From positions 329,958 to 393,957 of the forward strand of contig CBDAQR010000003.1 in NCBI GenBank assembly GCA_965199055.1: a stretch of 64,000 nucleotides of DNA, written 5' to 3'. Of this stretch, positions 8,280 through 27,386 are shown piece after piece. Below the pieces are notes generated by a model, which did no database searches, was not told where the DNA came from, and saw nothing but the letters and a program-made list of their open reading frames with translations. Position 1 is the stretch's first letter, and every line of letters starts with the position of its first letter. This DNA comes from Halieaceae bacterium. Lineage in GTDB: Bacteria; Pseudomonadota; Gammaproteobacteria; Pseudomonadales; Halieaceae. The translations under genes and the position numbers were made by a program.

Positions 8280-8331
8280 ACCGATAGTGTATACGAGGGC
8301 GGCGAAGCTGGCTCAGCGGCTGCGGCGTGAA

Positions 8332-9468: not shown

Positions 9469-9480
9469 GCTGCTATCCCC

Positions 9481-10668: not shown

Positions 10669-10783
10669 AACGTACTTCCAAACAACTGATTGGGACAGCA
10701 ACCATGATAGCGAGGGACCTCTACCCCTCAATGGCCACATGAGTCATTCCTGACTGGCAAAACTGATCAACCGGGGGTGAATC

Positions 10784-10845
10784 AACAGCCTTGAGCGGAC
10801 CTGAAAAACAGCCTTGAGCGGACCTTAGTAAACAGCCTCGAGCGG
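10784..10845. repeat. three direct repeats AACAGCCTTGAGCGGACCT (x2 perfect, third copy AACAGCCTCGAGCGG) with 23-24 bp spacing in a divergent promoter region
   Basis: Copies start at 10784, 10807 and 10831. They lie between the divergently transcribed ACAD gene (start 10668) and the DUF35 gene (start 10947). Confidence 0.85.
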
Positions 10846-10946
10846 TTTTCATAAAAAGCTGAACCGGCCCCCAGATACCGGCCCGCCAGCTTGCCCGCTC
10901 CGGGGGTGGGTAGTATTCTGCCCGCCGCACTATCGAGGACTTCCCC

Positions 10947-11402
10947 ATGAGCGAAAAACCACTGGTAGCGGCCATCGACGGCTGGCACACCATGGATATG
11001 GAACAGCCGCACCTGATTGGCAGCCGCTGTATTCACTGCGGCACTTACTCCTTTCCCAAACAGAGCAGCTATTGCAAGAACCCGAACTGCAATAGCACAG
11101 AGTTCGAAGACGTGCATCTTAGCCGCACTGGAAAAGTCTGGAGCTATACCAACGCCTGTTATCAGCCGCCCGAGCCCTTTGTGGCGCCAGAGCCTTTCGA
11201 GCCCTATGCGTTGGCTGCCGTACAGTTGGAGAAGGAACAAATGGTCATCATGGGTCAGGTCGCCGATGGCCTTGGCGTGGACGCCCTGAAAGTTGGCATG
11301 GAAATGGAACTCGTATTGCAAACGCTGCATGAGGATGAAGAAGACACCAAGGTGACCTGGAAATGGCGCCCTATCGCTGAACAAGATGGAGGTGCAGCAT
11401 GA
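10947..11402 (+). CDS. DUF35-type OB-fold/zinc-ribbon protein (thiolase-associated)
   Basis: It has a rubredoxin-like CxxC...CxxxxC motif (CIHCGTYSFPKQSSYCKNPNC) followed by an OB-fold region. It overlaps the downstream thiolase-like gene by 4 nt, which is the canonical pairing. Confidence 0.85.
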   Translation: MSEKPLVAAIDGWHTMDMEQPHLIGSRCIHCGTYSFPKQSSYCKNPNCNSTEFEDVHLSRTGKVWSYTNACYQPPEPFVAPEPFEPYALAAVQLEKEQMVIMGQVADGLGVDALKVGMEMELVLQTLHEDEEDTKVTWKWRPIAEQDGGAA

Positions 11403-12592
11403 GCGCCGATCAGGAAATTGCGATCATCGGGGCCGGCATGACCCCCTGGGGCAAGTGGGGCAGAAACTTTGCCGAATACGGCGTAGAGGCAGCCCTCGAG
11501 GCACTCGCCGATGCCGGCATTCCGTGGCAGGACATTAGTTTTGTCTCCGGCGGCGCCACCATACGTAACGGCTATCCCGGATACGTTGCAGGCGCCACTA
11601 TCGCCCAGGCCCTCGGTTGGCAGGGTGCCGAAGTAAACACCTCATACGCGGCCTGCGCGTCGGGTTCCCAGGCACTGGCAGCCGCACGCACCAAAATTCT
11701 CGCAGGTCAGTGTGACGTCGCCCTGGTGGTGGGCGCCGATACCACTCCGAAAGGTTTCCTGGCTCCGGCCAAGGGCTATCGCCCGGAAGACCCGGACTGG
11801 GTGCGCTTCTATCTCGGCGTCACGAACCCCACCTATTTTGGCTTATATGCCCGTCGCCGCATGGATCTTTATGGCGACACTCAGGATGATTTTGCGGCAG
11901 TAAAGGTCAAGAACGCTGCCATAGGACTGCACAACCCACGCGCGCGCTACAAGAAAGCCTTCACCGCTGAAGATGTCGCCGCTTCGGCTATGGTGGCCGA
12001 CCCGCTTCGGCTGATGGACATTTGTGCCACCAGCGATGGCGGCGCCGCACTCATTGTTTCGAGCCTCGACTACGCCAGGAAACTCGGCAAGGGCGATGCA
12101 CCTCGAGTCGCGGCAATTTCAACGGTTACGCCAACCTTCGCCAGCAGCACCGTCGAGATGCCGGACATCGCTACTGACTCCGCCGCCGCAGACGGTGTCG
12201 AGCCCATCGCGTACCGCGGACAGATTCCCACCAAAGCCTACGAAGAGGCCGGCATCGGCCCGGAAGATATTTCGCTGGCAGAGGTCTACGACCTGTCCAC
12301 AGCTTTGGAGTTGGATTGGATAGAAGACCTGCAACTCTGTGAACGCGGCACCGCCGCACAGTTGCTGCGTAATGGCGATACCGCCGTAGGTGGGCGCATC
12401 CCCGTCAACGCATCGGGTGGTCTTGCCTGTTTCGGTGAAGCAGTGCCCGCCCAGGCGCTGGCTCAGGTGTGTGAACTCACCTGGCAGTTGCGCGGCGAAT
12501 GTGGACCGCGTCAGGTGGAAAATGCGAAGGTGGGCATCACGGCGAACCAGGGCCTGTTCGGCCACGGCTCCTCCGTTATCGTCAAGCGTTAA
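11399..12592 (+). CDS. thiolase-superfamily protein (SCP-x/lipid-transfer type)
   Basis: It has the active-site Cys context TSYAACASGSQAL and the C-terminal motif NASGGLACFGEA. It is paired with a DUF35 gene. Confidence 0.88.
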   Translation: MSADQEIAIIGAGMTPWGKWGRNFAEYGVEAALEALADAGIPWQDISFVSGGATIRNGYPGYVAGATIAQALGWQGAEVNTSYAACASGSQALAAARTKILAGQCDVALVVGADTTPKGFLAPAKGYRPEDPDWVRFYLGVTNPTYFGLYARRRMDLYGDTQDDFAAVKVKNAAIGLHNPRARYKKAFTAEDVAASAMVADPLRLMDICATSDGGAALIVSSLDYARKLGKGDAPRVAAISTVTPTFASSTVEMPDIATDSAAADGVEPIAYRGQIPTKAYEEAGIGPEDISLAEVYDLSTALELDWIEDLQLCERGTAAQLLRNGDTAVGGRIPVNASGGLACFGEAVPAQALAQVCELTWQLRGECGPRQVENAKVGITANQGLFGHGSSVIVKR

Positions 12593-13451
12593 GCGCCTTC
12601 AGTGCAGCGGCCTGGGATAGCAGACGCCGAGCGCCATCGACGTGCATGGTCTCAACCAGTTTGCCGTCCAACACCGCAACGCCCTTGCCCGCCGCTTCGG
12701 CCGACTCCCAGGCGTCGATAATTCGCTGCGCGCGCTCAAGTGCCTCATCACTAAAGCCATACACTTTGTTGGTCGTCTCTATCTGTGTCGGGTGAATAAG
12801 GGTTTTGCCATCGAAGCCCAGCGCATGCCCGTGTAAACAGTCTTCCCGGAAAGCCTCGGGATCGGTGATGTCCAGAAATACTGAATCGAGGACGACACGA
12901 TTGTGCATACGCGCTGCGTTTACGCTTTTGGAAAGCGCATAGAGCAGGCCGAGACGGTCGGACCTTACCGGTATTCGCAATTCGTGAGCCAGATCGGTCG
13001 TCCCCATCAATAGCGCTTCCAGCTCCTCACACGCCCCACAGATCGACTCGACATTGGCGACACCGCGGGGCGTTTCAATCATTGCCCAAACGCGCAGCGT
13101 ATCCGGCGCCCCCGCCTGTCGTAACAGGTCAATACAGCGCTCCAACTGATCGGCGCTATCAATCTTGGGGAGACATACAGTCTCTACGCCGGCCATGGCC
13201 AGAACGCGCAGATCATCTTCACCCCAGGGGCTGTCGATACCGTTGGCGCGCACCACCAAGCGCCGCGCGCCATACCCCCCTGCCGCCAATTGCTGCAAAA
13301 CCTGGGAGCGGGCGATCTCCTTCATATCCGGCGCGACGGCATCCTCTAAATCAAAGATCACCGCGTCACAGGGCAAGCTGCGCGCCTTATCCATGGCTCG
13401 TTGGTTGGCGCCAGGCATGTACAGTACGGAACGAAGCAGACTCTCTGCCAT
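12582..13451 (-). CDS. HpcH/HpaI aldolase / CitE-like acyl-CoA lyase
   Basis: It has LRSVLYMPGANQRAMDKARSLPCDAVIFDLEDAV, typical of the citrate-lyase beta / malyl-CoA lyase family. I prefer the internal ATG at 13451 to the track's 13607. Confidence 0.85.
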   Translation of the reverse strand: MAESLLRSVLYMPGANQRAMDKARSLPCDAVIFDLEDAVAPDMKEIARSQVLQQLAAGGYGARRLVVRANGIDSPWGEDDLRVLAMAGVETVCLPKIDSADQLERCIDLLRQAGAPDTLRVWAMIETPRGVANVESICGACEELEALLMGTTDLAHELRIPVRSDRLGLLYALSKSVNAARMHNRVVLDSVFLDITDPEAFREDCLHGHALGFDGKTLIHPTQIETTNKVYGFSDEALERAQRIIDAWESAEAAGKGVAVLDGKLVETMHVDGARRLLSQAAALKALNA

Positions 13452-13600
13452 TCTCACAATCTCCGGTGTTGCTGCGGCTGCCGATTGATCCGCAGCGGGG
13501 CTAGTAGAAGCCACCGAACTCCTTATAATCTGAGGCCACAATAAAATAGTAAAACGGGTATGTGCCGCTGCACAGCACCCAAATCCAGGAGCGTATGATA

Positions 13601-14563
13601 ATGCCAAGCCTGTTCAATACGGAAATCGCCATTGCCGATGGCACCCTCACCGGCCCCTGGCGCCGCCCTCGACAAATGCTGGCGGAGCAGACCTACGACG
13701 GTCACCTGTCCCTCCACGACGATGAACAGGCCCAGGAACTAGGCTTCAGCGGCGCGCCCATTGAAGGCCCGACGCACTTCAGCCAGTTCGAACCCCTACT
13801 GGTGGAGGCTTTCGGCGAACGCTGGCTAGAATGCGGTTGTATTAGCGCGCACTTCAAGACCATGGTGGTGGAAGGCGAAGAGGTTCAGGCGAGCGTTGAA
13901 GTACCCGCCGCAGGCAGCAATATCACGCGCATCAGGGCTGTGAAGAAAACGGGTGAACCCGTTTTAGAAGGCACTGCTTCGCTCGGCCCCGACCACCCCG
14001 AAAGCGAGCTGGAACGCCTGCTCGCCTCACGCCCCACACCCGACAAACTCGTCATTCTGGAGCACGTCAAGATCGGCGACAGCGCCGAGAACGCCGAGCG
14101 GGTACATATGCACTTCGACCAAAATCTCGGCGACGGCTACCCCTTCACACTGGAGCAAAAACTGCAGGTCATTACGGAACACAGCCCCTGGTACACCGCC
14201 GAGGGCGCGGTCGATTCACCCTGGGGCAAGCCCATCATACCGATGGAGATGCTGAGCCCGCTGGTGCAATACGCCTACAACGCTATCGGCAGCAAGGCGA
14301 AACGCCCAGTGATCGGCCTGTTCGCCGATCTGGAAATTCGACTGATCAACGGGCCGATATTTGTAGGCCAGGACTATCTGCTAGAGAAGGAAATCATTGG
14401 CCTGGGCGAGAGCGGGCGCACCGAAAGCGCCTGGGTTCGTACTTCGATTCGTGACGCCGAAAGTGGTGAACTGGTAGCCACCAGCACCCTGAATAGCGCT
14501 TATCTTAAAAACTCCTATCCGGATTACGACAAGGAAGCCGAGGCCATGGGCAAGACGGCCTGA
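13601..14563 (+). CDS. hypothetical protein, possibly a degenerate double hot-dog (MaoC-like) hydratase
   Basis: It has SLHDDEQAQELGFSGAPIEGPTHF, which resembles the MaoC dehydratase motif. AGGAG lies 9 nt before the ATG at 13601. The family assignment is tentative. Confidence 0.55.
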   Translation: MPSLFNTEIAIADGTLTGPWRRPRQMLAEQTYDGHLSLHDDEQAQELGFSGAPIEGPTHFSQFEPLLVEAFGERWLECGCISAHFKTMVVEGEEVQASVEVPAAGSNITRIRAVKKTGEPVLEGTASLGPDHPESELERLLASRPTPDKLVILEHVKIGDSAENAERVHMHFDQNLGDGYPFTLEQKLQVITEHSPWYTAEGAVDSPWGKPIIPMEMLSPLVQYAYNAIGSKAKRPVIGLFADLEIRLINGPIFVGQDYLLEKEIIGLGESGRTESAWVRTSIRDAESGELVATSTLNSAYLKNSYPDYDKEAEAMGKTA

Positions 14564-14608
14564 AACCCAGTCTTGCTACAATCGGCAACCGGCGCTGAAG
14601 GAGCCACC

Positions 14609-15079
14609 ATGCACAAACCCCTGTTACTTGTTTCACTGCTGTCCGGCCTGCTCGGCTGCAGCGTTGAGGTCGACCGCGCCGATAGCACGCCACCCTTTGA
14701 AGTGGTTGCCGATGCGCACGACACCATGATGCATATCCTGGAACCCGCCGCGGATGTCATCTGGGATTCTGCCGGCTATATCATCACCATTGAGGGCGAA
14801 CAAAATCTCGCGCCCACTACCGATGAGCTGTGGACCGAAGTCGTGAACGCGAGCATGGTCATCGCCGAGAGTGGCAATCTGCTGATGCTGCCTGGCCGCA
14901 GCCAGGGGGCAGATTGGAACGCCTATGCGGTGGGCATGATTCAGACCGGCAAACTGGCGATCGAAGCCGCGGAAAACCAGGACGCCGAAGCCCTCTTCGA
15001 CGCCGGCGGTCGTATCTATCAGGTTTGCCGAGCCTGCCATAACCAGTACTGGGTTAAGGAAGACGAGAACGGCGAATGA
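14609..15079 (+). CDS. class II cytochrome c (cytochrome c-prime-like) lipoprotein
   Basis: It has a lipobox (LLGC) and is about 155 aa and helical. A single CXXCH (CRACH) lies about 15 residues from the C-terminus, as in class II c-type cytochromes. An AAGGAG SD precedes the ATG at 14609. Confidence 0.7.
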   Translation: MHKPLLLVSLLSGLLGCSVEVDRADSTPPFEVVADAHDTMMHILEPAADVIWDSAGYIITIEGEQNLAPTTDELWTEVVNASMVIAESGNLLMLPGRSQGADWNAYAVGMIQTGKLAIEAAENQDAEALFDAGGRIYQVCRACHNQYWVKEDENGE

Positions 15080-15750
15080 GTCGAGTTGCCGCAGGCCTGG
15101 CATTAATGCTATTCGCTGCAGGCCTGGCGGCTCACGACCTTTCCGCTGACAACGCGGCATTCGTTCAGGGTCTGCAGGGCGCCGCCGCGGGCCCCTTCCT
15201 CTACCTCGGCGCCAAGCATATGTTTACCGGCTACGATCACCTGCTGTTCCTCGTGGGGGTCATCTTCTTCCTGTACCGACCCCGCGACATCGTACTCTAC
15301 GTAACACTGTTCACCTTGGGCCACAGTCTGACGCTGGTGCTTGGCGTGGGAATGGGCTGGCAGGTCAGCGGACACCTGGTGGATACCGTCATAGGTCTAT
15401 CGATCGTCTACAAGGCATTCGAAAACATGGGTGGCTTTCAACAGTTGTTCGGGATAGAACCGGACACGAGGATTGCGGTATTTGTCTTCGGCCTGTTTCA
15501 CGGCCTCGGTCTCGCGACCAAGCTGCAGGAATACATGGGCACCGGCGAAGGAATGTGGACCAACCTGCTCAGCTTTAATATCGGCGTGGAACTCGGTCAA
15601 CTCGCGGCGCTCACCCTGATTCTGCTGGTGCTGCTGCGATGGCGCGCGCACGGAAGCTATCGGCAGCATGCGTTCGCAACCAATAGCGTTCTGATGTGCC
15701 TGGGTTTTGTTCTGGCAGGCCAGCAATTGGCGGGCTACGTCTATGCCTGA
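15076..15750 (+). CDS. HupE/UreJ-family membrane protein (putative metal transporter)
   Basis: It is polytopic with FTGYDHLLFLVGV and FGLFHGLGLA motifs typical of the HupE/UreJ_2 family. It overlaps the upstream gene by 4 nt. Confidence 0.75.
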   Translation: MSRVAAGLALMLFAAGLAAHDLSADNAAFVQGLQGAAAGPFLYLGAKHMFTGYDHLLFLVGVIFFLYRPRDIVLYVTLFTLGHSLTLVLGVGMGWQVSGHLVDTVIGLSIVYKAFENMGGFQQLFGIEPDTRIAVFVFGLFHGLGLATKLQEYMGTGEGMWTNLLSFNIGVELGQLAALTLILLVLLRWRAHGSYRQHAFATNSVLMCLGFVLAGQQLAGYVYA

Positions 15751-16297
15751 GTCGCGTCGCATTATCGTTAGCTCCGCCGTTAGCTTTGTGGCCGCAGCTA
15801 TCTTGCTCCTCACAGTCGTGCTCCCCGCTGAATACGGTTGGGACCCACTGGGTACCGGCGAGGCCATGGGTCTGCTGGGTCTGGCCGGCGACGATGTTCG
15901 CCCACTGCGCGCTCAGCCGCAGAACTGGCATAGCGATGAAATTCGCTTTCAGCTACTGCCCTTTGAGTCAGTGGAATACAAATACCGGCTGGAGGAAGGC
16001 GCCGCCATGTTGTATCGCTGGACAGCTGACGGGGAACTGCTGTTCGATATGCACAGCGAGCCCGACGGTGCGGCTACGGGTTACGCGGAAACCTTCAATA
16101 AGGCGAACAGCCAAGCTGAGCAGGGGAACTACACTGCGCCCTTTGCCGGCATACACGGCTGGTTTTGGCAGAATCGCGGCGAAGAGGAAGTCACCGTTAC
16201 CCTGCGAACGGCGGGCTTCTACTCAAGCGCAATCGAATTTCGCGACGGCCACAGTTTTCGCTATGCCTTCACGAGTGAAGGCAAGATGCCCGAATAG
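15743..16297 (+). CDS. membrane-anchored hypothetical protein
   Basis: It has one N-terminal TM helix (IIVSSAVSFVAAAILLLTVVL) and a soluble beta-rich C-terminal domain. Its ATG at 15743 overlaps the HupE stop. The alternative frame 15696-16331 is Cys/Trp/Arg-rich junk. Confidence 0.7.
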   Translation: MPESRRIIVSSAVSFVAAAILLLTVVLPAEYGWDPLGTGEAMGLLGLAGDDVRPLRAQPQNWHSDEIRFQLLPFESVEYKYRLEEGAAMLYRWTADGELLFDMHSEPDGAATGYAETFNKANSQAEQGNYTAPFAGIHGWFWQNRGEEEVTVTLRTAGFYSSAIEFRDGHSFRYAFTSEGKMPE

Positions 16298-16321
16298 CAC
16301 CGGGGACTTTCACGGGAGGGC

Positions 16322-16459
16322 TCAGCCGTAGGCAAGCTCCAGCATCTCTAAAGTGTCCTGAATTTGGACGAACCAATACACGGCAAAAAACACGATGATG
16401 GCGCCTGCACTGATCAGCGCAGCCAGTTGTAGGTCTTTCGAGTCGCTTTGTTCGCTCAT
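16322..16459 (-). CDS. 45-aa single-TM peptide (not in the ORF track), last gene of the PQQ operon
   Basis: It translates as MSEQSDSKDLQLAALISAGAIIVFFAVYWFVQIQDTLEMLELAYG. AGGAG lies 6 nt upstream of the ATG at 16457-16459, 9 nt after the stop of the upstream membrane gene. The stop is a TGA at 16322-16324. Confidence 0.6.
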   Translation of the reverse strand: MSEQSDSKDLQLAALISAGAIIVFFAVYWFVQIQDTLEMLELAYG

Positions 16460-16468
16460 TCTCGTCTC

Positions 16469-17035
16469 CTAACCCGAAAACCCGATCCAACGGCCTGTTG
16501 CAGCCACGGTAAACCAGACCATGACCGACGATACCGCGACCGAACGCACCACCCAGGGGTTTAGCGAATCAATATCGCCGCGCAGCAGCGGACGTTTAAT
16601 GCAAAACACAAACAGTATGCCCGCACCCAGGGCGAGCATCTTGTACCAGAACACATCCAGGTAATAAATCTTCATGGCCACACCACAGGCCATGAACACG
16701 CCAGTCAACAATACGACGGCCAGCCCCCACAAAAACAGCTTGTGCGCCTGCTCCTGGACTTCTGCGCAGGGAACATCGGCAAACAGCCAACCCAGCAAGC
16801 GCGCATCACTGATCAGCACGGCACCACCAAGCAACGCCATGGACAACAGGTGGAAGGCCTGCACTACGGCGAAGGCCGCTCCCCAGGTTTTCCCAATGTG
16901 TCCGAACAGTGTGGTCTCCATCCACTCAAACATCGGCTGCAAACCGTCGTGCAGCTCAGACTTCAAACCGGTAAAGCCAACCAGGAGCGCAATACCCAGT
17001 ACCAGGATGACGCCAATCGTGCGTTGATAAGCCAC
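16469..17035 (-). CDS. uncharacterised 5-TM membrane protein E (paralogue of D)
   Basis: I chose the GTG at 17035 with a G-rich SD 5 nt upstream, 10 nt after the D stop. E shares the motif H-(L/V)-L-(S/T)-(M/L)-x-L-x(2-3)-G-x(4-5)-D-x-R-(L/M)-LGW with D. Confidence 0.75.
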   Translation of the reverse strand: MAYQRTIGVILVLGIALLVGFTGLKSELHDGLQPMFEWMETTLFGHIGKTWGAAFAVVQAFHLLSMALLGGAVLISDARLLGWLFADVPCAEVQEQAHKLFLWGLAVVLLTGVFMACGVAMKIYYLDVFWYKMLALGAGILFVFCIKRPLLRGDIDSLNPWVVRSVAVSSVMVWFTVAATGRWIGFSG

Positions 17036-17045
17036 TGCAGCCCCC

Positions 17046-17615
17046 CTAGAAGTGCGCCTGATCGGCGATACAGCCGGCCAGGTTTCCGATGAATGCGGGA
17101 GGGTTCTTGGCGCAGTCGAACCAGTCATAGGCGATCAGGCGACCGCAGATCACAATGCCAACCCAGAAACTGATGGATAAGGCTGCACCGAGTCGCAAGC
17201 GCGAGGGTGCCTTGGGGTCTGTATCCCAGCTCGACACCGATTCGCTCATGCGTTTATGGAAGAGCCAGGCATTGAGCGCCGCAGCAACCAGGAGCACTAC
17301 CTTTATACGAAACCAAAGGCTCTGCGACGTGCGCACCGGTATCGCGTAGTAAAGCATAATCCCGGTGATAAACATGATGACGAAGCCGACGGCCATGGGC
17401 CACGCCAGCTTGCTGGAAATGCGTGAGGCCGGGATATTCGGAAGCGCCCAGCCCAACATGCGCAAGTCGATGATAAACAACATGCCGAGACTCAGCATCA
17501 GCGTCAGCACATGGGTCGTTTCCACCCAGTTGTACATGTAATAGCTCTCGTGAAGCATGGTGCTCCACTGGTGGCCGTCTATCCAAACGGCAAAATCGTA
17601 GATCAGTTGGTTCAC
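17046..17615 (-). CDS. uncharacterised 4-TM membrane protein D
   Basis: It is 189 aa with 4 predicted TM helices and a Cys-containing C-terminal tail (CGRLIAYDWFDCAKNPPAFIGNLAGC). Its start is 3 nt after the stop of gene C1. Confidence 0.8.
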   Translation of the reverse strand: MNQLIYDFAVWIDGHQWSTMLHESYYMYNWVETTHVLTLMLSLGMLFIIDLRMLGWALPNIPASRISSKLAWPMAVGFVIMFITGIMLYYAIPVRTSQSLWFRIKVVLLVAAALNAWLFHKRMSESVSSWDTDPKAPSRLRLGAALSISFWVGIVICGRLIAYDWFDCAKNPPAFIGNLAGCIADQAHF

Positions 17616-17618
17616 CGA

Positions 17619-18071
17619 TTATCGCTCTCGCGGATCGTATCCATCCTTAGGCGCGCCGGTCCCCGAGGAACCCATGAAGGCACGCTTGCCATCGGCGAGT
17701 GTAATGTCGCGACCGTTGGCTTTGCAGGCCGGATCGCAACTCTTGTTCTTCGCCTGGTAGCCACGCACCTTGATCTCGCTACCTATGGGTACCGAGTTCC
17801 GGTTGATACCGGCGCGCAGTAGAGTGTTCGGAGTACCCCCCTCGACCATCCAGGCCTGGGTACTGCCGTCGGGCTGCTCGGCCGCCAGGTGTATCCATGC
17901 ATGCGGGTTAATCCACTCCACCTTGGTGACCTTTCCCTGCAGGGAGACTGGAGCATCCTTGTCGAACTCTGCGGAAAACGCATGGTGGGCCCAGGCTCGC
18001 CAAGAAGCGACGACAATGACAGGTACAGCTAACAACAAAACTGTTTCTCGGGTCTTCATTGAAATCTTCAT
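17619..18071 (-). CDS. small exported protein C1 with predicted mature N-terminus HHAFSAEFD
   Basis: An AGGAG SD lies 7 nt before the ATG at 18071. The signal peptide ends AWA just before HH. C1 is a paralogue of 57066-57545. I cannot confirm a family name (I recall DUF6152-type annotation, unverified). Confidence 0.8.
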   Translation of the reverse strand: MKISMKTRETVLLLAVPVIVVASWRAWAHHAFSAEFDKDAPVSLQGKVTKVEWINPHAWIHLAAEQPDGSTQAWMVEGGTPNTLLRAGINRNSVPIGSEIKVRGYQAKNKSCDPACKANGRDITLADGKRAFMGSSGTGAPKDGYDPRER

Positions 18072-18075
18072 TTCT

Positions 18076-19041
18076 TCACTCCTGCTCTTCCTGCCGCGCG
18101 CCAGCCAGTATATTCGGCAATCCGTAATTACCTTCGTGGCAAGCGTACTCAAAAATGGGGCCATCGGACTTGCGCAGGGTCAATTCGCCCGCCCAATCCT
18201 GTGTGTAAATGTCCGGATCGGATATCTCGAAGCGATACACCATTTCGTTTTCGTTGATGCGGGTGAAGCGCTCCGTGACCTTCGTATCATCGCCCATCAT
18301 CAACTGGTGCTTGATTGCCAGGCGCAGGAATTGCTCGGGATGGAACTGAGTGGTCTCAACTACCAGAGTGTCGCCTTCCCAGCGGCCGATACTGTCTCCC
18401 AGCCAGGGTTGTATCTGCGGCGGCAGTCTTTCACCCCCTATGCGGAGCGTGCGCACATTGTGGTTCATTTCCACCAGTATCATCACGTGCCCCGGCGACT
18501 GGGCAAACTGATAGTTGTTGTTGTACAGCACCGGCAACATGGGTGGACCGCCGGTGGAGCCAAAGCCCACGGTGCAGCGCTCTCCCTCGGGGCGCTCTTC
18601 GGGATTGTCGGCGAAGTTCAGCAGCTTGTAGGCGTTCCAATAGAAACGTAGCTGTTGATGCCACTTATAAGGTATCTGGCCGTCTGCTGGCTCAACGATA
18701 ATGGAACCGCGCGCTTCTCCGCGTACGCGCAGCGCTTTACTGCCCGGGTCCATCCAGAAGCTGTTGTAGCCGCCAATATCACCGCCGGCCTCGAGATCGC
18801 CTTCGCCCACGTTATCGACCGACTCCATCATCTCTTCCATGCCGTTTTCGACGAAGCGTGCCTCTTCCTCGGTCAGCACCAGGTTAGGCAGTTCATCCGG
18901 TCGCTCCAGGGTCGTTACTGTCGCCGTGGTCCATATCCCCTGCATGTCGGGGTCGCCCCAAGGCATTCTCTGCAACTCCCAGTCTGCAGCCAGGCTTGCG
19001 GGAGCCACCAGGAGCAAAACGATAGAAGCTGTTCTAAGCAT
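18076..19041 (-). CDS. exported uncharacterised protein B1
   Basis: It has a signal peptide MLRTASIVLLLVAPASLA. Its conserved blocks are GGYNSFW, FGSTGGPPMLP, WEGDTLVVETT, VTERFTR and EYACHEGNY. It is a paralogue of 56006-57064. Confidence 0.85.
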   Translation of the reverse strand: MLRTASIVLLLVAPASLAADWELQRMPWGDPDMQGIWTTATVTTLERPDELPNLVLTEEEARFVENGMEEMMESVDNVGEGDLEAGGDIGGYNSFWMDPGSKALRVRGEARGSIIVEPADGQIPYKWHQQLRFYWNAYKLLNFADNPEERPEGERCTVGFGSTGGPPMLPVLYNNNYQFAQSPGHVMILVEMNHNVRTLRIGGERLPPQIQPWLGDSIGRWEGDTLVVETTQFHPEQFLRLAIKHQLMMGDDTKVTERFTRINENEMVYRFEISDPDIYTQDWAGELTLRKSDGPIFEYACHEGNYGLPNILAGARQEEQE

Positions 19042-19054
19042 TTCGTCTATCCCC

Positions 19055-19879
19055 TCAGTCCAGTGGTTCATTGCGCAGGTGCCCGTACATCAGCTCCTCC
19101 ACGAATGGCACGCAATTGAATTGCAAAATACGGTCGTCGGCACCAACGCGTTTATAGAGGTTCATGCTCAGCGTCCAGGGCTGCGTATAGACCTTTTCAT
19201 CCTCCAGAGTCGCCTCGTAGCGCATGGTGTGCTCGCTAGTACGGGTAAATCGCTCGGTGACCTTGAGCTTCTCACTGTGGAAATTCCCCGCGCGGTCGAG
19301 CCAGGTCTGGTCGTTCTGCCCATCGGTATGTATCACCAGGGTATCGCCCTCCCACTCCGCCCAGGACTGGCGCATCCAGGAATCGATCGGTGCCGGGCCC
19401 GGATCGCTCAGCGCCACGTTGCGAACAGCGCCAGCATACTCATAGGAAAATACCAGCGCGTCCTTGTTATGAAAAATCTGAAAAGGGAATGACATATAGT
19501 TGGCCCGAGGGATACCGGGCAGATAACACTTGATCTCGGGATCTCGCTCCAGGTAGTTCGCCCGATTGTCATCGCGTTGCTTGAGCGCCCACTCCTGATA
19601 GGGAATCTTGCCTCCCTCCACATATCCGATACCACCCGGTACCGCACCCACAGCCCCCAGCGCGACCACTTCCTTAGCGGGCACCGGCACTACCGGACCT
19701 TCTCGCATCGCCAAGGCGGCGCGGGGCGCACTGGGTTCCAGATTGTAATTGGCGGTATTGAGCACCTGCCAGACACCATTAAGATCGGGTTTGCCGTCGG
19801 CGGTGCGCGCGGGCTCATAGTCCGCTGCAGCCAGTGCCGACCCGAGCAATATCAGCGATGTGATCAGGCTTCTCAACAT
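19055..19879 (-). CDS. exported uncharacterised protein A1
   Basis: GAGGA lies 5 nt before the ATG at 19879 (track start 19891). It has a signal peptide MLRSLITSLILLGSALA. Its conserved blocks are PDLNGVWQ, RDPEIKCYLPGIPR, DPGPAPIDSWM, WEGDTLV and TERFTR. It is a paralogue of 55141-55983. Confidence 0.85.
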   Translation of the reverse strand: MLRSLITSLILLGSALAAADYEPARTADGKPDLNGVWQVLNTANYNLEPSAPRAALAMREGPVVPVPAKEVVALGAVGAVPGGIGYVEGGKIPYQEWALKQRDDNRANYLERDPEIKCYLPGIPRANYMSFPFQIFHNKDALVFSYEYAGAVRNVALSDPGPAPIDSWMRQSWAEWEGDTLVIHTDGQNDQTWLDRAGNFHSEKLKVTERFTRTSEHTMRYEATLEDEKVYTQPWTLSMNLYKRVGADDRILQFNCVPFVEELMYGHLRNEPLD

Positions 19880-19896
19880 AGTGGTCCTCATATCTT

Positions 19897-21933
19897 TTAC
19901 TTATCGGAATCGTCTGGCAGCGCAAACGCGATGATGTGATCGCCTGGCGGCGCGCCGCCGGCCCAATGACCGCCCGCCGCAATAACTACGAACTGCTTTT
20001 GTCCGGGCCCGGTCTGGTAGGTCATGGGCACCGCATTGCCGGCGGTGGGCAGTCGCGCCTTCCACAACTCTTCACCGGTCTCAAGCGAGTATGCGCGCAG
20101 CGCGTGTTCATTGGCCACACCACTGAATACCAGGCCAGTATCGGTCATCATGGGGCCGCCGAATCCCGGCACCCCTTCGATCCACCAGAAAGGAAAGGGC
20201 GCCATATCTCTGGACGTACCCAGCGGAACACTCCACAGCGTTTTCCCGGCTTCGATATCGATGGCATCCAATGTCGCCCAGGGCGGCGCACTGCAGGGCA
20301 CCCCAAGGGGCGACATAATAAATCCGGTTTCAACACAGTAAGGCGTACCCGTTTGCGGCTGTCCTCTGCCTTCACAGTTTTCACGCGGGATGAGCCGCAA
20401 GCGACCGGCAACGCGGGTAGTGGCAACAACCATCACACCGGTATCGGGATGTATCGCCGGAGAGCCCCAGTTGTTACCACCGGCGTTCACCGGGTAGTGC
20501 ACCGTACCTTCCAGGGATGGGGGCGTGTAAATGCCTTCATTACGCATTTCTGACAAGGTATTGGCGCACGCTGCCTCATCGAACAGCACCATACCCCAGG
20601 CATCATCCGCCGTTAGCGGTGCATCGATGGTGTAGGGAATATGCGAGGGAAAAGGTTGGGTGGGCGATAGATACTCACCCTCTACCGCGCCTTCCTGCGG
20701 TACGGGTCTTTCCTCCACCGGCCACAGGGGCTCGCCCGTCTCTCGGTGAAAGGCAAAGGTCATCCCCATCTTCGTTACCTGCACCACAGCTGGCACTGTC
20801 TTGCCCTCCACACTCAGGTCGACCAGGGTGGGCTGTGCCGGTGTGTCATAGTCCCAGATGTCGTGATGCACCATCTGGTAATACCAGGCCACCTCGCCGC
20901 TTTCCCCGTGCAGGGCAACGGTGGAACTCGAATAATGATCCAAATCCCCCTCAACCAGTCTGCGATGTCCGCCGTAGTAATCCGGCGTGGTGTTGCCGGT
21001 TGGCAAAAACACCAGATCGCGCTCTTCATCCACCGAGATGATGGACCAGACACTAGTCGTACCGCTGCGCCAGGTGCCGTCTTCGTGTCTTGCATCCAAG
21101 CCAGGGGGCACTGGATTCCAGGCCCACAGCATTTCTCCACTGCGGACATCGAAGGCCTTAACCACACCCGCGGGTGAGGTGGTGCGCTGGTTGTCCAAGA
21201 CCATCGACCCCGTGATGATGCGATCACCCAGAATCGCCGGCGGCGATGTAATACCGTGCTCGGCCGAATGATGCTCGCTGAGACGGCCGCTGGTATCGAC
21301 CTGGCCCGCTTCACCAAAGTCAGGACAGGGCTTACCCGTTTCGGCATCCAGAGCTATGAGCCGCGCATCGAGCGTGCCCAGAATAATGCGGTGTTCACAG
21401 AAACCTTGCTCACCCGAGCGCCAGCTACTAACGCCACGGCAGTTGGGCAACACCGGCTCGGCATCCATATCGACCTGCGGATCAAAACTCCAGCGCTCCT
21501 GACCGGTGTTGGCATCCAGCGCAAACACTCGATTAAACGCGGTGCAGTAATACAGCGTGTCTTCAACGACGATAGGCGTGACCTGCAGCGAGCTCTGGCT
21601 GTGGCGACTACGTGAACCATGCCCTCCCTCTTCTTCCAGGGTCGGTTCACCCTCACCCCAGTAGGCTTCGCGAAAATCTCCGGAGCGATGCGTCCAGGCT
21701 ACTTCCAGTCGAGCGACATTGGCAGGGGTAATCTGGCTGGCGCGGGAAAAGTGTGTACCACCACCGGTGGCGCCGAATGCAGGCCAGTCGGCCACAACAT
21801 TGCGAGGCGCCGCTGCGGCCACTGCTTCATTACCGGCGTCAATACTGGCACCGCAAGCCACCAGTACTCCGGCTACAGGTATGGTTGCCGCCAACAGTAG
21901 TGATTGGGTGATCTGCTTAGCCCGCAGATTCAT
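19897..21933 (-). CDS. PQQ-dependent dehydrogenase, glucose/quinate/shikimate (Gcd) family, lipoprotein form without the N-terminal TM domain
   Basis: It has Gcd-type blocks (VAWTHRSGDF, TPIVVEDTLYYCTAFNRVFALDANTGQERWSFDP, VVKAFDVRSGEMLWAWNP) and the C-terminal GGHWAGGAPPGDHIIAFALP. The N-terminus is a signal peptide with lipobox LVAC. I chose the ATG at 21933. Confidence 0.88.
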   Translation of the reverse strand: MNLRAKQITQSLLLAATIPVAGVLVACGASIDAGNEAVAAAAPRNVVADWPAFGATGGGTHFSRASQITPANVARLEVAWTHRSGDFREAYWGEGEPTLEEEGGHGSRSRHSQSSLQVTPIVVEDTLYYCTAFNRVFALDANTGQERWSFDPQVDMDAEPVLPNCRGVSSWRSGEQGFCEHRIILGTLDARLIALDAETGKPCPDFGEAGQVDTSGRLSEHHSAEHGITSPPAILGDRIITGSMVLDNQRTTSPAGVVKAFDVRSGEMLWAWNPVPPGLDARHEDGTWRSGTTSVWSIISVDEERDLVFLPTGNTTPDYYGGHRRLVEGDLDHYSSSTVALHGESGEVAWYYQMVHHDIWDYDTPAQPTLVDLSVEGKTVPAVVQVTKMGMTFAFHRETGEPLWPVEERPVPQEGAVEGEYLSPTQPFPSHIPYTIDAPLTADDAWGMVLFDEAACANTLSEMRNEGIYTPPSLEGTVHYPVNAGGNNWGSPAIHPDTGVMVVATTRVAGRLRLIPRENCEGRGQPQTGTPYCVETGFIMSPLGVPCSAPPWATLDAIDIEAGKTLWSVPLGTSRDMAPFPFWWIEGVPGFGGPMMTDTGLVFSGVANEHALRAYSLETGEELWKARLPTAGNAVPMTYQTGPGQKQFVVIAAGGHWAGGAPPGDHIIAFALPDDSDK

Positions 21934-22142
21934 TAAAGCCCCCTGAATAATTATCGTTATGCGCACATACTCAAGATTCAAAAGTGTTACGCAGCGTTGG
22001 AGCCTTTGCAAGGAAAACATACCCAGCATTCTAATATGCTAAACCGCCGTTAAAGGCTATCTGTGTTTCACCCTCTTGATAGGGGGTTTCGCATACTGTA
22101 ACTTCGAAGATGATAAAAATAATTTCACAATGAGGTACACCC

Positions 22143-24554
22143 ATGGGCCGTATGAACCGCTCCATCCTCGCGCTACCCTTCGCCGCCCTGCCGCTCGCAA
22201 TCGCTTTGCAGGCACAAGCGCAGGATTCCGAAACCAGTTTGCAGCTCGAAGAAATTATCGTGACGGCAAGCCGCCGGGCGACGTCGCTGCAGGACACGCC
22301 TATCGCCGTAACGGCGTTTTCCCAGGGGATTCTGGAAGAGCTGAACGTCAACAGCCCATTTATGTACGAGGCGCTGGTACCCTCGCTGACCTACCAACAG
22401 TCGCCGAATCGGCTGTCGATTCGCGGCGTAGGACGATTCTCCAACTAACTCGGGACCGCCCCCGGTGTCGCCATCTACAATGATGGAATCTTCACCGCTG
22501 AAGCGACATCGCTTAGCACCCAGCCGATCAATATGGATCGGACCGAAATTCTGCGCGGCCCTCAGGGCACACTCTACGGCCGCAACACCACCGGTGGTGC
22601 AGTGAACATCATTTCCAAAAGGCCAACGGCAGAGTTTGGTGCCGACCTGCGAGTCAAAGTCGGAGAGGAAGACCTGCGCCAGTTTGCCGGAGTTGTGAGC
22701 GGCCCTCTCACGGATAGCTTTCGCTACAAACTGCACTACATCAATACCGAGCAGGATGGCCTGCAGGAAAATGTCGCAGGAGATGATTTCGGCAGTGAAG
22801 ACAGCTGGTATGCCGAAGCACAGATCGAATGGGACATTACTGACCGACTGCACCTGTGGGCTGAGTACTCTCGCTTCGAATATGACCGGGTACCCCGGGT
22901 GAACTGGGAGCAGGACGAGTACAACTGCGAAACCTTCTGGAATGGCCTCACAAAAAACTCACAATACCTCGCCTGCCAGAATGGTTTCGAGCGCGTCGGC
23001 ATCAATGACCCCAATAAGGAGGCCCGCAATGGCGAGGCCAAAGAAGAGCTGAACAATAATAACAGCATCACAGCTCGACTTTCGTTCGATCTCGAAGGTG
23101 CTGAACTGAGCTACCTGTTTGGCAAGGTCGAATACGACTACGACATTACAACCGACTCGGATGGCACCCAGGACACAACACCTGAGAACCAGATATTTTT
23201 ATCGGTAGGACAATATCAGGACCAAACCACCCACGAACTGCAGTTAATCTCTGACTGGGACAAGGACTGGAACTATGTTGTCGGGCTCTACTATTTCGAG
23301 GATAAAAACGAGCAGCCGTACTTAATCCACAATCCGGATAACCCAACCTTTTCTACCAGTACCGATCTTGCGGGCAACTTCTGGGACAACCCCCTGGGCG
23401 CGATCTATTACCAGGTCGGCGCGATCGACAACGAGTCGTGGGCCGTGTTCGGCGAGGTCGATTTCCCCATCGCCGAGAAGTGGACCATGACCCTCGGCGC
23501 CCGTTACTCCGAAGATGACTTCACCGGCTACGAGAGCCAGATCCGCTACTACAACCTGTTCCGGGAGTTCGGCGGCGTCGACCTGCCCTATGCACTGGAT
23601 GCCAGCGTCGAGCCTTTTGCCGGCGATTCAAGCCGCTATATCGGCAGCCCCTATGACGCCAAGCACGAGGACGACTTCAGTAATACCACCGGTAAGATCA
23701 CCCTGAGTTACCGTCCGGGTGACGCAACTCTGCTGTGGGGCACGCTTTCCAATGGGTACAAGATGGGGGGCACACGTCTGGGTGCCATGGAAGAGTTTTT
23801 TGCCGCAGAAGCCGGAGTAGTGGACGATGGCGAGTTCGATCAAGAAGAGGTGATTTTATATGAGATCGGCTGGAAAGACAGCTTCCTCGACAACACGCTG
23901 CAGACCGAGCTGGTCGGCTTCTTCTACGACTACGAAGATATGCAGCAGCTGCGAGGTTACCTGACACCGCCGCCTGCCTCTATCGGTCTCGATCAGGTAG
24001 TCAACGTGGACACCGAAATGTGGGGTATCGAGGCCAGCGGCACCTGGCTCGTGACCGACCACCTGCGCGCCATCATCTCTTACTCCTACAACGACACGGA
24101 AATCACCTCAGACGCATTTTTCAATGACACTGACTTCGGTGAACGGGACGAAGACGGCAATATCATTCCCACCAATGTGAAGGGCAACCAACTGCGCTTG
24201 ACCCCTGAACATAAGGCAGCCATCTCACTACACTATTTCTGGCCCACGCAGTACGGTGAGTTCACCCTAGGTGGCACTGGCTCCTATATGGACGATCGCT
24301 ACTTCGACATTTTCAATAACGATGAGGAAGGCAGCTATACCCGTGTCGACTTACAGGCATCGTGGACCAGCGTCAGCGAACGCTACGAAATCCTTGGCCT
24401 GGTGACCAATGCGACCGATGAAGAAGCATTTAACACCCACGGCTGCGGCACTCAGGGCACTGGCACCTATGGCACCTCGGATTTTGTTCTCACCTGCGGT
24501 GGCCGCGCCTTGGACAAGCGGCTTTGGGAAGTACAGTTCATCCTGAAGATCTAA
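22143..24554 (+). pseudogene. TonB-dependent receptor interrupted by a single in-frame TAA (22446-22448)
   Basis: ORFs 22143-22448 and 22533-24554 are in the same frame. Translation across the stop reads ...RLSIRGVGRFSN*LGTAPGVAIYNDGIFTAEATSLSTQPINMDRTEILRGPQGTLYGRN..., a continuous plug domain. Confidence 0.7.
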
Positions 24555-25248: not shown

Positions 25249-27327
25249 TCAAAGACTGGCGAAGCCCTTACCCTCTTCTGCCAGTCTCACCATCAATGGC
25301 GCGGGCTCCCAGGCGCTATCGCCTGTCTGCTCCTGGTACTTGCGCATGGTGGCGACGATCTTATCCAGACCAACGCTGTCGGCGTAGTGCATTGGGCCGC
25401 CGCGATAGATAGGCCAGCCGTAGCCGTAAACCCAGGTTACATCGATATCACTCGCGCGAATGGCTATGCCTTCCTCCAGGATCTTGGCGCCCTCGTTAAT
25501 CATCGGATAAATACAGCGCTCCAGAATTTCTGCATCGGCGATGTCTCGCTGTTCGAGCCCCGCTTTCTCAGAAAACTGACGAATAATGTCTTCCACGACC
25601 GGCGATGGTGAAGGATTGCGCTTCTCATCGTAGTCGTAATAGCCAGCACTGGTTTTCTGGCCACGACGGTCTGCCTCGCACAACAGGTCACGAATTGTTT
25701 CGCCCTTAGAGGTCTCCGCACTCCAACCAATGTCCAGACCCGCAAGATCCGACATCTGGAAAACCCCCATGGGCAGGCCAAACTCCACCAGCACACGGTC
25801 TACATCCTGCGGCAGCGCGCCTTCCAGGATCAGCTTCTGACCCTGCTCCTGACGCGGGAACAGAATTCGGTTACCGACGAAGCCGGGGCAAACTCCCACC
25901 AGCACCGCTGTTTTTCGAATGCGCTTGGCAAATGACATGCAGGTCGCGATGACTTCTTTCGAGGTTTTGCCACCGCGCACGATCTCCAGCAGCTTCATCA
26001 CGTTGGCGGGCGAGAAAAAGTGCAGCCCAATGACCGACTCCGGCCGCGATGTGGCGGCAGCGATCTCATTCACATCCAGCGCGGAGGTGTTCGAGGCCAA
26101 GACCGCGCCCTGCTTTACGATGCCGTCCAGCTTGCCGAAGATTTCTTTTTTCAGGTCCATGTTCTCGAACACCGCCTCGATCACCAGATCGCAATCGGCA
26201 AGGTCCTCGAGCTTAAGGCTACCGGTGATCAAGCCACAGCGCGTTTCCACATCCTCGGCACTGATGCGACCCTTGCTCGCGGTATTTTCGTAGTTCTTGC
26301 GGATAACACCGAGGCCACGATCCAATGCTTCTTGCTTTGTCTCTACGATGGTTACGGGTATGCCAACATTGGCCATATTCATGGAGATGCCCCCACCCAT
26401 CGTGCCTGCACCGATCACGCCCACCTTTGCGATGGGTATCTCTGCGGTGTCCCTGGGCACGTCCGGAATTTTCGCGGCCTGACGCTCGGCAAAGAAAAAG
26501 TACTGCTGCGCGCGCGACTGGGGACCGGCCATCAACTCGGCAAACAACTTTGATTCCACGGCCATACCTTCATCGAAGGGCAGATTTACCGCCGCCTCAA
26601 TGCACTGAATATTGTATTCAGGCGCGAGGAAACCACGGGTTTTGCGAGCAATCGATTTACGGAAATCATCGAACAGAGACGGATTGTCCCGGGCTGATTG
26701 CAGCTTATCTTCCCGATCGCGAATTCTGGTGAGCGGCACGGCCTCATCAATCACTCTACGCGCGAAAGACAGCGCGCCATCGCGCAGATCACCGGGAACA
26801 ATTTCCTCCACCAAGCCGTCGGCCAGTGCATCGTCGGCGCCAATTTGTGCACCCGATGTCATCATCACCAGGGCCTTCTCCGCGCCTACGACTCGCGGCA
26901 AACGTTGGGTACCACCCGCACCAGGCAGCAATCCAAGATTAACTTCCGGCAGCCCAAAGCGAGCGCCTGCATCACACACGCGGAAGTGACAGCACAGCGC
27001 CGTTTCCAGGCCACCACCCAGAGCAGTGCCATGAATCGCGGCAATGATCGCTTTGTCGGAGTTCTCCATGACACGCAGCACCGCTTGAAAATCTGGTCCT
27101 TTCGGTGCTCCGGCGAACTCGGTGATATCGGCGCCGGCAATGAAGGTGCGACCCGCGCAAATCAGCACAATGGCTTTAACCGCATCGTTCGCAAGACACT
27201 GCTCGACGCCGTCTTTAATACCCTGGCGCACGCCCTGACTGAGAGCGTTGACCGGCGGATTGCCGATGGTGATCAACGCGATATCACCTTCGATCGTCAG
27301 GTCGGCCATGTCGGTGAGTGCTGTCAT
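25249..27327 (-). CDS. bifunctional enoyl-CoA hydratase / 3-hydroxyacyl-CoA dehydrogenase (FadB/FadJ-like)
   Basis: It has an N-terminal crotonase fold (ITIGNPPVNAL, FIAGADITEF) and a Rossmann motif VGVIGAGTMGGGI in the 3-HCDH domain. I chose the ATG at 27327; the track ORF is extended to 27501. Confidence 0.9.
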   Translation of the reverse strand: MTALTDMADLTIEGDIALITIGNPPVNALSQGVRQGIKDGVEQCLANDAVKAIVLICAGRTFIAGADITEFAGAPKGPDFQAVLRVMENSDKAIIAAIHGTALGGGLETALCCHFRVCDAGARFGLPEVNLGLLPGAGGTQRLPRVVGAEKALVMMTSGAQIGADDALADGLVEEIVPGDLRDGALSFARRVIDEAVPLTRIRDREDKLQSARDNPSLFDDFRKSIARKTRGFLAPEYNIQCIEAAVNLPFDEGMAVESKLFAELMAGPQSRAQQYFFFAERQAAKIPDVPRDTAEIPIAKVGVIGAGTMGGGISMNMANVGIPVTIVETKQEALDRGLGVIRKNYENTASKGRISAEDVETRCGLITGSLKLEDLADCDLVIEAVFENMDLKKEIFGKLDGIVKQGAVLASNTSALDVNEIAAATSRPESVIGLHFFSPANVMKLLEIVRGGKTSKEVIATCMSFAKRIRKTAVLVGVCPGFVGNRILFPRQEQGQKLILEGALPQDVDRVLVEFGLPMGVFQMSDLAGLDIGWSAETSKGETIRDLLCEADRRGQKTSAGYYDYDEKRNPSPSPVVEDIIRQFSEKAGLEQRDIADAEILERCIYPMINEGAKILEEGIAIRASDIDVTWVYGYGWPIYRGGPMHYADSVGLDKIVATMRKYQEQTGDSAWEPAPLMVRLAEEGKGFASL

Positions 27328-27386
27328 AGTGTGTAACCCCGTATATTTGCTAGTCTCTGAACAACAGTGGAGAGTAGACGACAACG

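Follow-up and report, generated by a model that had tools for sequence, protein, structure and literature searches.

A widespread and previously undescribed set of envelope proteins is encoded in a 64,000-nucleotide stretch of DNA from a Halieaceae bacterium (assembly GCA_965199055.1, contig CBDAQR010000003.1; hereafter the window), within a cluster of seven closely packed minus-strand genes at positions 16322-21933. In reading order these genes specify a pyrroloquinoline quinone (PQQ) dehydrogenase, two exported proteins predicted to form barrels (A1 and B1), a small exported protein of family DUF6152 (C1), two paralogous membrane proteins of family DUF6644 (D and E) and a 45-residue peptide (F). 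Comparison of homologous loci identifies the conserved unit as A/B plus C, accompanied in about half of the loci by D/E and a lipoprotein cytochrome, and not as the seven-gene operon with the PQQ dehydrogenase envisaged in the original prediction. Since this core is found repeatedly beside, or fused to, c-type cytochromes and periplasmic dehydrogenases, it most likely handles their electrons. The reading that we tentatively prefer, at a little under an even chance, is that the module accepts electrons in the periplasm for dehydrogenases without a membrane anchor of their own, such as the Gcd-family enzyme of the window. No description of this gene set was found in the literature.

A conserved core with variable partners

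The case for the module is built on observed gene content, conservation, fusions and neighbourhood statistics. Loci were searched with an alignment of the A family, one genome per species; at least 570 loci were confirmed and 80 kept, representing Gamma- and Alphaproteobacteria, Acidobacteriota, Gemmatimonadota and Acidimicrobiia (at least four phyla). Genes within 8 kb of A were counted in the 53 loci where A is flanked on each side by 6 kb or more, using our own, crude calls of open reading frames (ORFs); several ORF clusters were discarded as antisense ORFs lying over A, B or C in high-GC loci. The loci were selected via A, and D/E or cytochrome genes encoded away from A fall outside the counts.

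C lies within this distance in 50 of the 53 loci and B in 43, followed by the homologue of the cytochrome that is convergent in the window (29), D (28) and E (26). The pair formed by a HupE-like gene and a gene for a transmembrane (TM) anchor protein is present in 6/53 and F in 4/53. D and E are absent from about half of the loci. The original prediction had set the cytochrome, HupE-like and TM-anchor genes apart as a separate convergent unit. That division does not hold: the trio (its HupE-like and TM-anchor genes in proteobacteria) belongs to the system, since the cytochrome is near A in 29 of 53 loci and at most 300 bp from D/E in 15 of the 21 loci having both. Between lineages the gene order is shuffled while the set is retained, with arrangements that include A-B-C convergent with cytochrome-D-E, D-E-A-B-C, and cytochrome-HupE-TM anchor-D-E; the HupE-like gene stands between the cytochrome and D/E in L003 and L041. 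Because the PQQ gene, D/E and the cytochrome are often not nearby, the A-B-C core must also function in their absence or rely on partners encoded away from the locus. The other immediate flanking genes are heterogeneous (135 Pfam families over 100 ORFs, the commonest being short-chain dehydrogenase/reductase (SDR), with 5, and PQQ, with 3), and a conserved flanking gene beyond the module was rejected on these grounds.

At E ≤ 1e-3 the homologues of A fill 8324 representative clusters of a library clustered at 50% identity, yet the A/B family has no Pfam model, solved structure or literature. It is common in abundant marine heterotrophs (Halieaceae, SAR86, Porticoccaceae) and in soil Acidobacteriota and Gemmatimonadota.

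Linkage to dehydrogenases and fusions to cytochromes

The expectation that homologues of the module would be linked to PQQ enzymes in other genomes was supported by a proximity control inside the fetched loci. There are 14 PQQ-family genes in the 229 kb of DNA lying at most 1 kb from a module gene and 4 in the 508 kb lying 4-10 kb away, which corresponds to 6.1 versus 0.8 per 100 kb, an approximately 7-fold enrichment (binomial p=6e-5) in a statistic that counts loci and not independent evolutionary events. PQQ genes adjoin or are embedded in the module in Halieaceae (L002), Caulobacterales (L041), Acidobacteriota (L066) and Gemmatimonadota/Longimicrobiales (L022, L035, L040, L064, L073). The enzymes concerned are of several types: some bear nothing more than a signal peptide, one is held by a 5-TM anchor and one is fused to a cytochrome. 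Overall, a PQQ-family gene occurs within 8 kb of A in 12 of the 53 well-flanked loci, and the link is facultative but clearly non-random. In two further loci (L033, L049) a flavoprotein dehydrogenase of the glucose-methanol-choline (GMC) type, exported by the twin-arginine translocation pathway, and its small subunit are encoded directly upstream of A-C; a tri-haem cytochrome subunit is not among our own ORF calls there, and no search was aimed at one.

Fusions carry the association from neighbourhood to single polypeptides. In P0269 a class I cytochrome c (PF13442, CQACH) is joined to a complete A domain; of the 120 best clusters that a search with this protein found, 119 contain the same cytochrome domain. 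All six loci inspected for such cytochrome c-A fusions (6/6) read B - cytochrome c-A - B' - DUF6152, and in five of the six a PQQ dehydrogenase lies within 5 kb, contiguous and on the same strand in L082, L087 and L089. A homologue of the window's lipoprotein cytochrome is encoded 3 kb from the fusion operon of L082. A second kind of fusion is found in L060 (positions 1-20460), a 20-kb island with eight or more units of DUF6152 and A/B-like type. Among them, five are fused, forming proteins of about 345 residues in which a DUF6152 domain (48-85 bits, above threshold) precedes an A/B-like domain and each signal peptide is cut directly before His-His. The island also encodes a di-haem cytochrome c and a PQQ gene of the alcohol-dehydrogenase type (15208-17654). 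The two kinds of fusion indicate that C would act physically with the barrel proteins, and the barrel proteins with a c-type cytochrome. Both are ready-made constructs for testing the electron-outlet reading.

Two enzyme families recur around these genes. Cyclase (PF04199) genes are found at the cytochrome c-A loci L082, L085 and L089. An alpha/beta hydrolase of family DUF3089 is fused to an A domain in L025 (8867-10756), lies directly upstream of A in L008 (8862-9983) and is 5 kb off in L001 (3802-4896).

The window itself contains a second copy of the core on the plus strand. A2 (55141-55983) is 53% identical to A1 over its full length and likewise has no Pfam match, B2 (56006-57064) is 41% identical to B1 and keeps the YACHE-x-N motif, and C2 (57066-57545; start inferred at MNRSEQ), a further DUF6152 protein, is 68% identical to C1, with the mature N-terminus HHAFSAEFD. 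The gaps between the three genes are 22 nt and 1 nt. The set is convergent with a 616-residue protein (58908-60758, minus strand) in which a cytochrome c domain (PF13442, residues 25-91, CAACH) is fused to a PQQ-like beta-propeller (PQQ 88 bits, PQQ_2 97 bits), so both A-B-C copies in the window adjoin a PQQ-family protein. A major facilitator superfamily transporter (57569-58888) is also convergent with A2-B2-C2, an alpha/beta hydrolase (52514-53554) and a carboxylesterase (53545-55053) lie upstream of A2, and no second set of D/E/F or cytochrome/HupE genes is found beside this copy.

Some quinoprotein alcohol and methanol dehydrogenases are encoded next to a cytochrome c that serves as their own electron acceptor (ExaA-ExaB, MxaF-MxaG, PedE/H-PedF). 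These pairs are the nearest systems by role, sharing a periplasmic PQQ dehydrogenase with an adjoining c-type cytochrome gene; in L082, L087 and L089 the operon's only cytochrome is the one fused to A. The module differs from them in that its cytochrome is either fused to a barrel domain or a class-II-like lipoprotein, in that B, C and often D/E accompany it, which have no counterpart in ExaA-ExaB-type operons, and in that the PQQ enzyme of the window is of the Gcd family rather than the alcohol/methanol dehydrogenase family of ExaA/MxaF-type systems.

The predicted barrel proteins and the DUF6152 protein

A1 (19055-19879, minus strand) and B1 (18076-19041, minus strand) are exported paralogues (27% identity, E 2e-18) that match nothing in Pfam or NCBIfam. 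The AlphaFold2 model of A has a predicted local distance difference test score (pLDDT) of 60, is better in the strands of residues 133-243 and contains a helix at 260-268. All of the 50 best Foldseek matches of this model in PDB are barrels of the CRABP/CRBP/FABP type (intracellular lipid-binding proteins), with E 1.4e-3 or worse and a template modelling score of about 0.5 on the target. The conserved G35-x-W37 motif and the C118/C256 pair of A are consistent with the calycin barrel fold, and A and B are tentatively read as calycin-like barrels. A sequence search of PDB returned no relatives of A, and a profile search none of significance for A or B. B1 has more invariant polar residues than A1, comprising E191, H194, R197 and C301-H302-E303-x-N305 in 71 sequences.

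One alternative to an electron-accepting role is non-redox substrate capture: A/B would be periplasmic carriers that pass hydrophobic compounds (alcohols or esters) or a cofactor, for example PQQ, on to the dehydrogenases, and C, D and E would be unrelated accessories. The calycin-like fold predicted for A and the adjacent PQQ enzyme fit this account, as do the lipid-metabolism, esterase and SDR genes that are common neighbours. It leaves unexplained the cytochrome c-A fusions, the C-A fusions and the conserved cytochrome-D-E sub-module, and we regard it as quite improbable, the least favoured of the alternatives considered here. A known pair with a similar composition is YceI-YceJ of E. coli, a periplasmic lipocalin-like isoprenoid binder with a cytochrome b561. 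The module resembles it in combining a periplasmic calycin-like protein with a small membrane protein of haem type (the haem of D/E being predicted), but no homology was detected, and YceI-YceJ has neither a DUF6152 nor a cytochrome c partner.

C1 (17619-18071, minus strand) is an exported DUF6152 protein (PF19649, 122 bits against a gathering score of 27), and its homologues are annotated with the same family. The signal-peptide site A28|H29-H30, an A-x-A site, is conserved in at least 95% of 72 sequences from several phyla; the cut site before H29 being conserved, the mature protein starts with His-His. H57 and H61 are conserved in at least 90% of these sequences, and several acidic residues are conserved too. 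The AlphaFold2 model (pLDDT 74) gives weak Foldseek matches to oligonucleotide/oligosaccharide-binding (OB) folds, namely the lysyl-tRNA synthetase N-domain, the Mop domain of ModE and SSB (E 3e-3 or worse), and an OB fold is predicted on this basis; sequence search found no PDB relatives of C. A CusF-type OB-fold metallochaperone was tried as an identity for C and rejected at an hhalign probability of 2.6% in comparison with a CusF sequence.

Measured against the histidine brace as defined in PMC10952591, C has His as mature residue 1 and a second His, in the L060 fusions as well, whereas in place of the immunoglobulin- or cupredoxin-like beta-sandwich of histidine-brace proteins its model matches OB folds. 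If the N-terminal His-His binds copper, C would add a new fold to that group. In a second alternative, A/B/C would be a periplasmic metalloenzyme activating O2 or peroxide, C contributing a site akin to a histidine brace and A/B a barrel for hydrophobic substrates, and the cytochrome c, PQQ and GMC dehydrogenases would serve as reductants, as in lytic polysaccharide monooxygenase (LPMO) systems. Right at the predicted cleavage site of the signal peptidase the N-terminal His is invariant, fusions included, and further invariant His residues accompany it; C is fused to a barrel domain; B has many invariant polar residues; the units are diversified in tandem in L060; and hydrolases or esterases are neighbours or fusion partners (DUF3089 in L008 and L025, the carboxylesterase and hydrolase upstream of A2). 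PQQ-dependent, GMC and cytochrome partners are also documented reductants of histidine-brace LPMOs (PMC8981238). The proposal is weakened by the predicted OB fold of C, which is not the immunoglobulin-like sandwich of LPMO or CopC, and by an analogy that is functional only, without homology, and in which both copper and substrate are hypothetical. We judge it distinctly unlikely.

The same idea can be stated more specifically, and in this fuller form is less probable again: A/B-C may be a new periplasmic metalloenzyme family in which hydrophobic substrates would sit in the barrel and be acted on by O2 or H2O2 activated at an N-terminal-His site on an OB fold. Its reducing electrons would come, via c-type cytochromes, from PQQ or flavin dehydrogenases, and these may in turn oxidise the product. 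Such a family would be a bacterial counterpart, with unrelated folds, of the coupling of LPMO to dehydrogenases or of particulate methane monooxygenase to methanol dehydrogenase. The documented LPMO redox systems include fungal PQQ pyranose dehydrogenase, GMC and cellobiose dehydrogenase donors and Cbp2D/Cbp2E of Cellvibrio (PMC8981238). The parts are comparable, in that an N-terminal-His protein, a lipocalin-like or YceI-like domain, c-type cytochromes and PQQ or GMC dehydrogenases are found in both. They differ in that there is no relationship of sequence or fold, C is predicted to be an OB fold, and the module is periplasmic and has no carbohydrate-binding modules.

Membrane proteins, the cytochrome and the case for metal transport

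D (17046-17615, minus strand) and E (16469-17035, minus strand) are paralogues (22% identity, E 9e-8). Both belong to DUF6644 (PF20349), E at 185 bits and D at a borderline 28.3 bits against a cutoff of 27, and 24 of 24 D/E homologues match the family. D is a 4-TM protein with an invariant His35 in TM1 and a C-terminal Cys pair, and E has an invariant His62. The joint alignment keeps this one TM1 His together with G85, K105, W151 and G158-R159, and the positive-inside rule places the TM1 His of both proteins near the periplasmic face. Below threshold, the 24 members resemble DUF2214 (8/24), CopD (5/24) and HemJ (3/24) in Pfam, and a profile search of PDB gave nothing significant. Membership of D in CopD (PF05425; 23.1 bits, under the 32.1 cutoff) and of D/E in HemJ/UPF0093 (PF03653; three of 24 matching, best E 0.0017) was rejected. 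F (16322-16459, minus strand) is a single-TM peptide conserved in five gammaproteobacterial loci (L001, L002, L006, L011, L017) with a shared Y-W...LAYG C-terminus, and is probably a small subunit working with D/E.

HemJ, a distantly related membrane protein, is dimeric and contains b-type haem (PMC13564367), so that a bis-His haem held between His35 of D and His62 of E is plausible. D and E are like HemJ (PgdH2, protoporphyrinogen dehydrogenase; PMC13564367) in being small multi-pass proteins of a remote similarity group that keep the TM1 His, and unlike it in that their matches are sub-threshold and no link to tetrapyrrole synthesis is seen. No paper was found that combines HemJ, CopD and haem.

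The convergent cytochrome (14573-15079, plus strand) is a class-II-like c-type lipoprotein with probable His/Met haem ligation. Its lipobox Cys is invariant, as is C152-x-x-C155-H156, a single CXXCH motif about 12 residues from the C-terminus, the arrangement of class II cytochromes. A Met in the N-terminal region is invariant in 35 sequences; as sixth haem ligand it would point to the low-spin c556 type, cytochromes c' having no such ligand. It scores 22 bits against Cytochrom_C_2 (cutoff 26.5) and is sub-threshold in 9 of 14 members, and the family profile matches PDB cytochromes c' remotely (E 5e-4), over the C-terminal helices only. The HupE-like gene (15076-15750, plus strand), whose start overlaps the cytochrome stop by 4 nt (15076-15079), encodes a HupE_UreJ_2 membrane protein (PF13795, 175 bits against a gathering score of 24.5) with a mature N-terminal His; conserved in 11 sequences are H20, H48-x5-D54-H55, H83 and H142. 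The third gene, TMa (15707-16297, plus strand), which as called is overlapped by the HupE-like gene over 44 nt (15707-15750), encodes a single-pass membrane protein whose periplasmic domain matches no family in Pfam. In 10 proteobacterial loci it is always paired with the HupE-like gene, and H116 and H150 are conserved.

Several of these features are those of metal handling. Acquisition or delivery of a metal (Cu, or Ni/Co) would make C a metallochaperone, D/E importers of CopD type and the HupE-like protein a divalent-cation permease, while the cytochrome would reduce the metal before import and A/B would be metallophore binders or scaffolds. The invariant mature N-terminal His-His, H57 and H61 of C, the mature N-terminal His and H-x5-D-H motif of the HupE_UreJ_2 protein, the sub-threshold CopD matches in 5 of 24 D/E sequences, and the TonB-dependent receptor that is divergent from the cluster in the window and in L002 are all in keeping with such a role. 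CopC and YcnI, which belong with CopD and YcnJ to the copper import systems CopC/CopD and YcnI/YcnJ, bind Cu through an N-terminal His, and fusions of cytochrome c to the copper chaperone Sco exist. The module shares with these systems a small exported N-terminal-His protein and multi-pass proteins with sub-threshold CopD similarity; it is set apart by the score of D under the CopD cutoff (23.1 versus 32.1), by C being DUF6152 and not CopC, and by its additional cytochrome, PQQ and barrel partners.

A metal role leaves both the dehydrogenase (PQQ and GMC) enrichment beside the module and the large cytochrome c-A subfamily without explanation, and at least seven C/A units in the one 20-kb locus L060 would be unusual for metal homeostasis. 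The HupE-like gene is found in only 6 of 53 loci and a receptor of the window type in one, C is unlike CusF in the hhalign comparison (2.6%), and D lies below the CopD threshold. Neither a riboswitch nor a consistent Fur box was found. No Rfam family, whether riboswitch or other RNA, reached threshold anywhere in the 64-kb window. In the AT-rich divergent intergenic region (21934-22142), two sites, at 21943 and 22106, agree with the Fur-box consensus in 13 of 19 positions, but in 23 other gammaproteobacterial loci the best upstream matches are mostly 9-12/19, which is noise level, and iron (Fur) regulation was rejected. Since the homologous loci have no comparable matches, those in the window may relate to the receptor gene or be due to chance. 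On balance metal transport is unlikely, although it stands ahead of the other alternatives. No sequence feature points to lanthanide handling, which was also considered.

The divergent receptor (22143-24554, plus strand) is present as the original prediction described it, together with the convergent trio. Its single frame is broken by a TAA at 22446-22448 (codon 102; RGVGRFSN*LGTAPGV), the result of pseudogene formation, of a mutation in this strain or of an error in sequencing; in L002 the orthologue is apparently uninterrupted (a single 803-residue ORF). The proposed link of the receptor to the system failed, and it was rejected as a conserved partner with an occurrence of 1 in 53 loci.

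A and B match no known family, while C and D/E fall into DUF6152 and DUF6644, both uncharacterised. None of A to E contains CXXCH, no characterised homologue was found for any of them, no paper mentioning DUF6152 or DUF6644 was found in the literature, and PDB yielded no relatives by sequence or profile search, all in agreement with the original prediction. Five of the seven cluster proteins have no characterised relative. Membership is secure only for DUF6152, DUF6644, HupE_UreJ_2 and the PQQ propeller; by cast of parts the nearest systems are the LPMO redox systems and CopC/CopD, and by fold the calycins and OB-fold proteins.

A proposed periplasmic electron outlet

The PQQ dehydrogenase (19897-21933, minus strand) belongs to the Gcd/quinate/shikimate family and matches the Pfam PQQ profile over its full length (positions 1-595, 723.6 bits), which identifies its catalytic domain as an eight-bladed PQQ beta-propeller. 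Its propeller is homologous to that of Gcd (TIGR03074) over profile positions 136-783, at 662.2 bits, under the cutoff of 832.65. Unlike Gcd, it has no N-terminal 5-TM ubiquinone-reducing domain (profile positions 1-135) and begins instead with a lipoprotein-type signal (lipobox LVAC), so that it is a probable lipoprotein without membrane anchor. With the anchor missing, the enzyme would have no usual route to ubiquinone, and its electrons would leave via A1/B1/C1 and the cytochrome.

In the mechanism that we propose, the A and B barrels would form a complex with C, with its predicted OB fold and His-His N-terminus, and this core would exchange electrons with c-type cytochromes. The anchor-less lipoprotein dehydrogenase would oxidise a substrate in the periplasm, with the A1/B1/C1 complex and, from the convergent strand, the class-II-like lipoprotein cytochrome c as the way out for the electrons. 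The 4-TM proteins D and E, with peptide F, would tie this relay to the inner membrane and may hold a bis-His haem b as in HemJ, and the HupE-like permease with its single-pass partner would deliver a metal ion or take it away, perhaps to serve the His-rich site of C. We infer the formation of the complex, the direction of electron flow and the final acceptor; candidate cofactors would be a bound quinone in A/B, which is plausible, Cu in C and haem b in D/E. Of the roles first offered for the cluster (electron hand-off, metal delivery and substrate capture), electron hand-off is the best backed, through the cytochrome c-A fusions, and the other two stand as its rivals. If the module is an electron outlet or a redox client of anchor-less dehydrogenases, it would explain how the many orphan PQQ and GMC enzymes of these lineages connect to respiration.

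Several observations weigh against an electron-accepting role. There is no PQQ-family gene within 8 kb in 41 of the 53 A-B-C loci, and about half of the loci have no D/E and cytochrome near A. The model of A is of moderate confidence (pLDDT 60) with weak fold matches (E about 1e-3), and A has no conserved metal or haem ligands. The N-terminal His-His of C looks less like an electron-transfer centre than like a copper site of catalytic or chaperone type. Metal transport would account just as well for the HupE-like gene and the similarity to CopD, and the tandem C-A expansion in L060 suggests substrate diversity and not a generic relay. Finally, any cofactor, complex or electron transfer of A to E is a prediction from the genes.

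Layout of the cluster and its surroundings

All seven minus-strand ORFs of 16322-21933 are present at the coordinates originally reported, and the close packing, the gaps and the Shine-Dalgarno-like motifs ahead of six genes were all found in the sequence as described. From the PQQ dehydrogenase through F the intergenic gaps are 17, 13, 4, 3, 10 and 9 nt. The motifs are GAGGA (A), GAGGGG (B), AGGAG (C), a weak GAGAG (D), a G-run (E) and AGGAG (F). Six of the seven have the same products in the public gene calls (PQQ dehydrogenase 678 residues, A 274, C 150, D 189, E 188, F 45), and the base composition of the region is even. Conserved homologues of all the cluster genes occur in many genomes, and the genes are therefore real. 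The spacing makes co-transcription of the seven genes likely. Consensus scans found promoter- and terminator-like sites in numbers no higher than in shuffled sequence and are therefore uninformative on transcription units. The cytochrome-HupE-TMa operon and the minus-strand cluster end 24 nt apart (16298-16321), and this gap contains no convincing terminator.

The flanks at 5024-14563 and 25249-28553 carry thiolase-like genes, a MaoC-like hydratase, an HpcH-type lyase and a FadB-like fusion, judged from translations to be of beta-oxidation type, which suggests a genomic setting of lipid catabolism. A second TonB-dependent receptor, confirmed by Pfam, lies at 5024-7498. Further along the window, a 725-residue ORF (50292-52469, minus strand) has a Redoxin/AhpC-TSA domain at residues 92-217 only, the remainder having no Pfam match.

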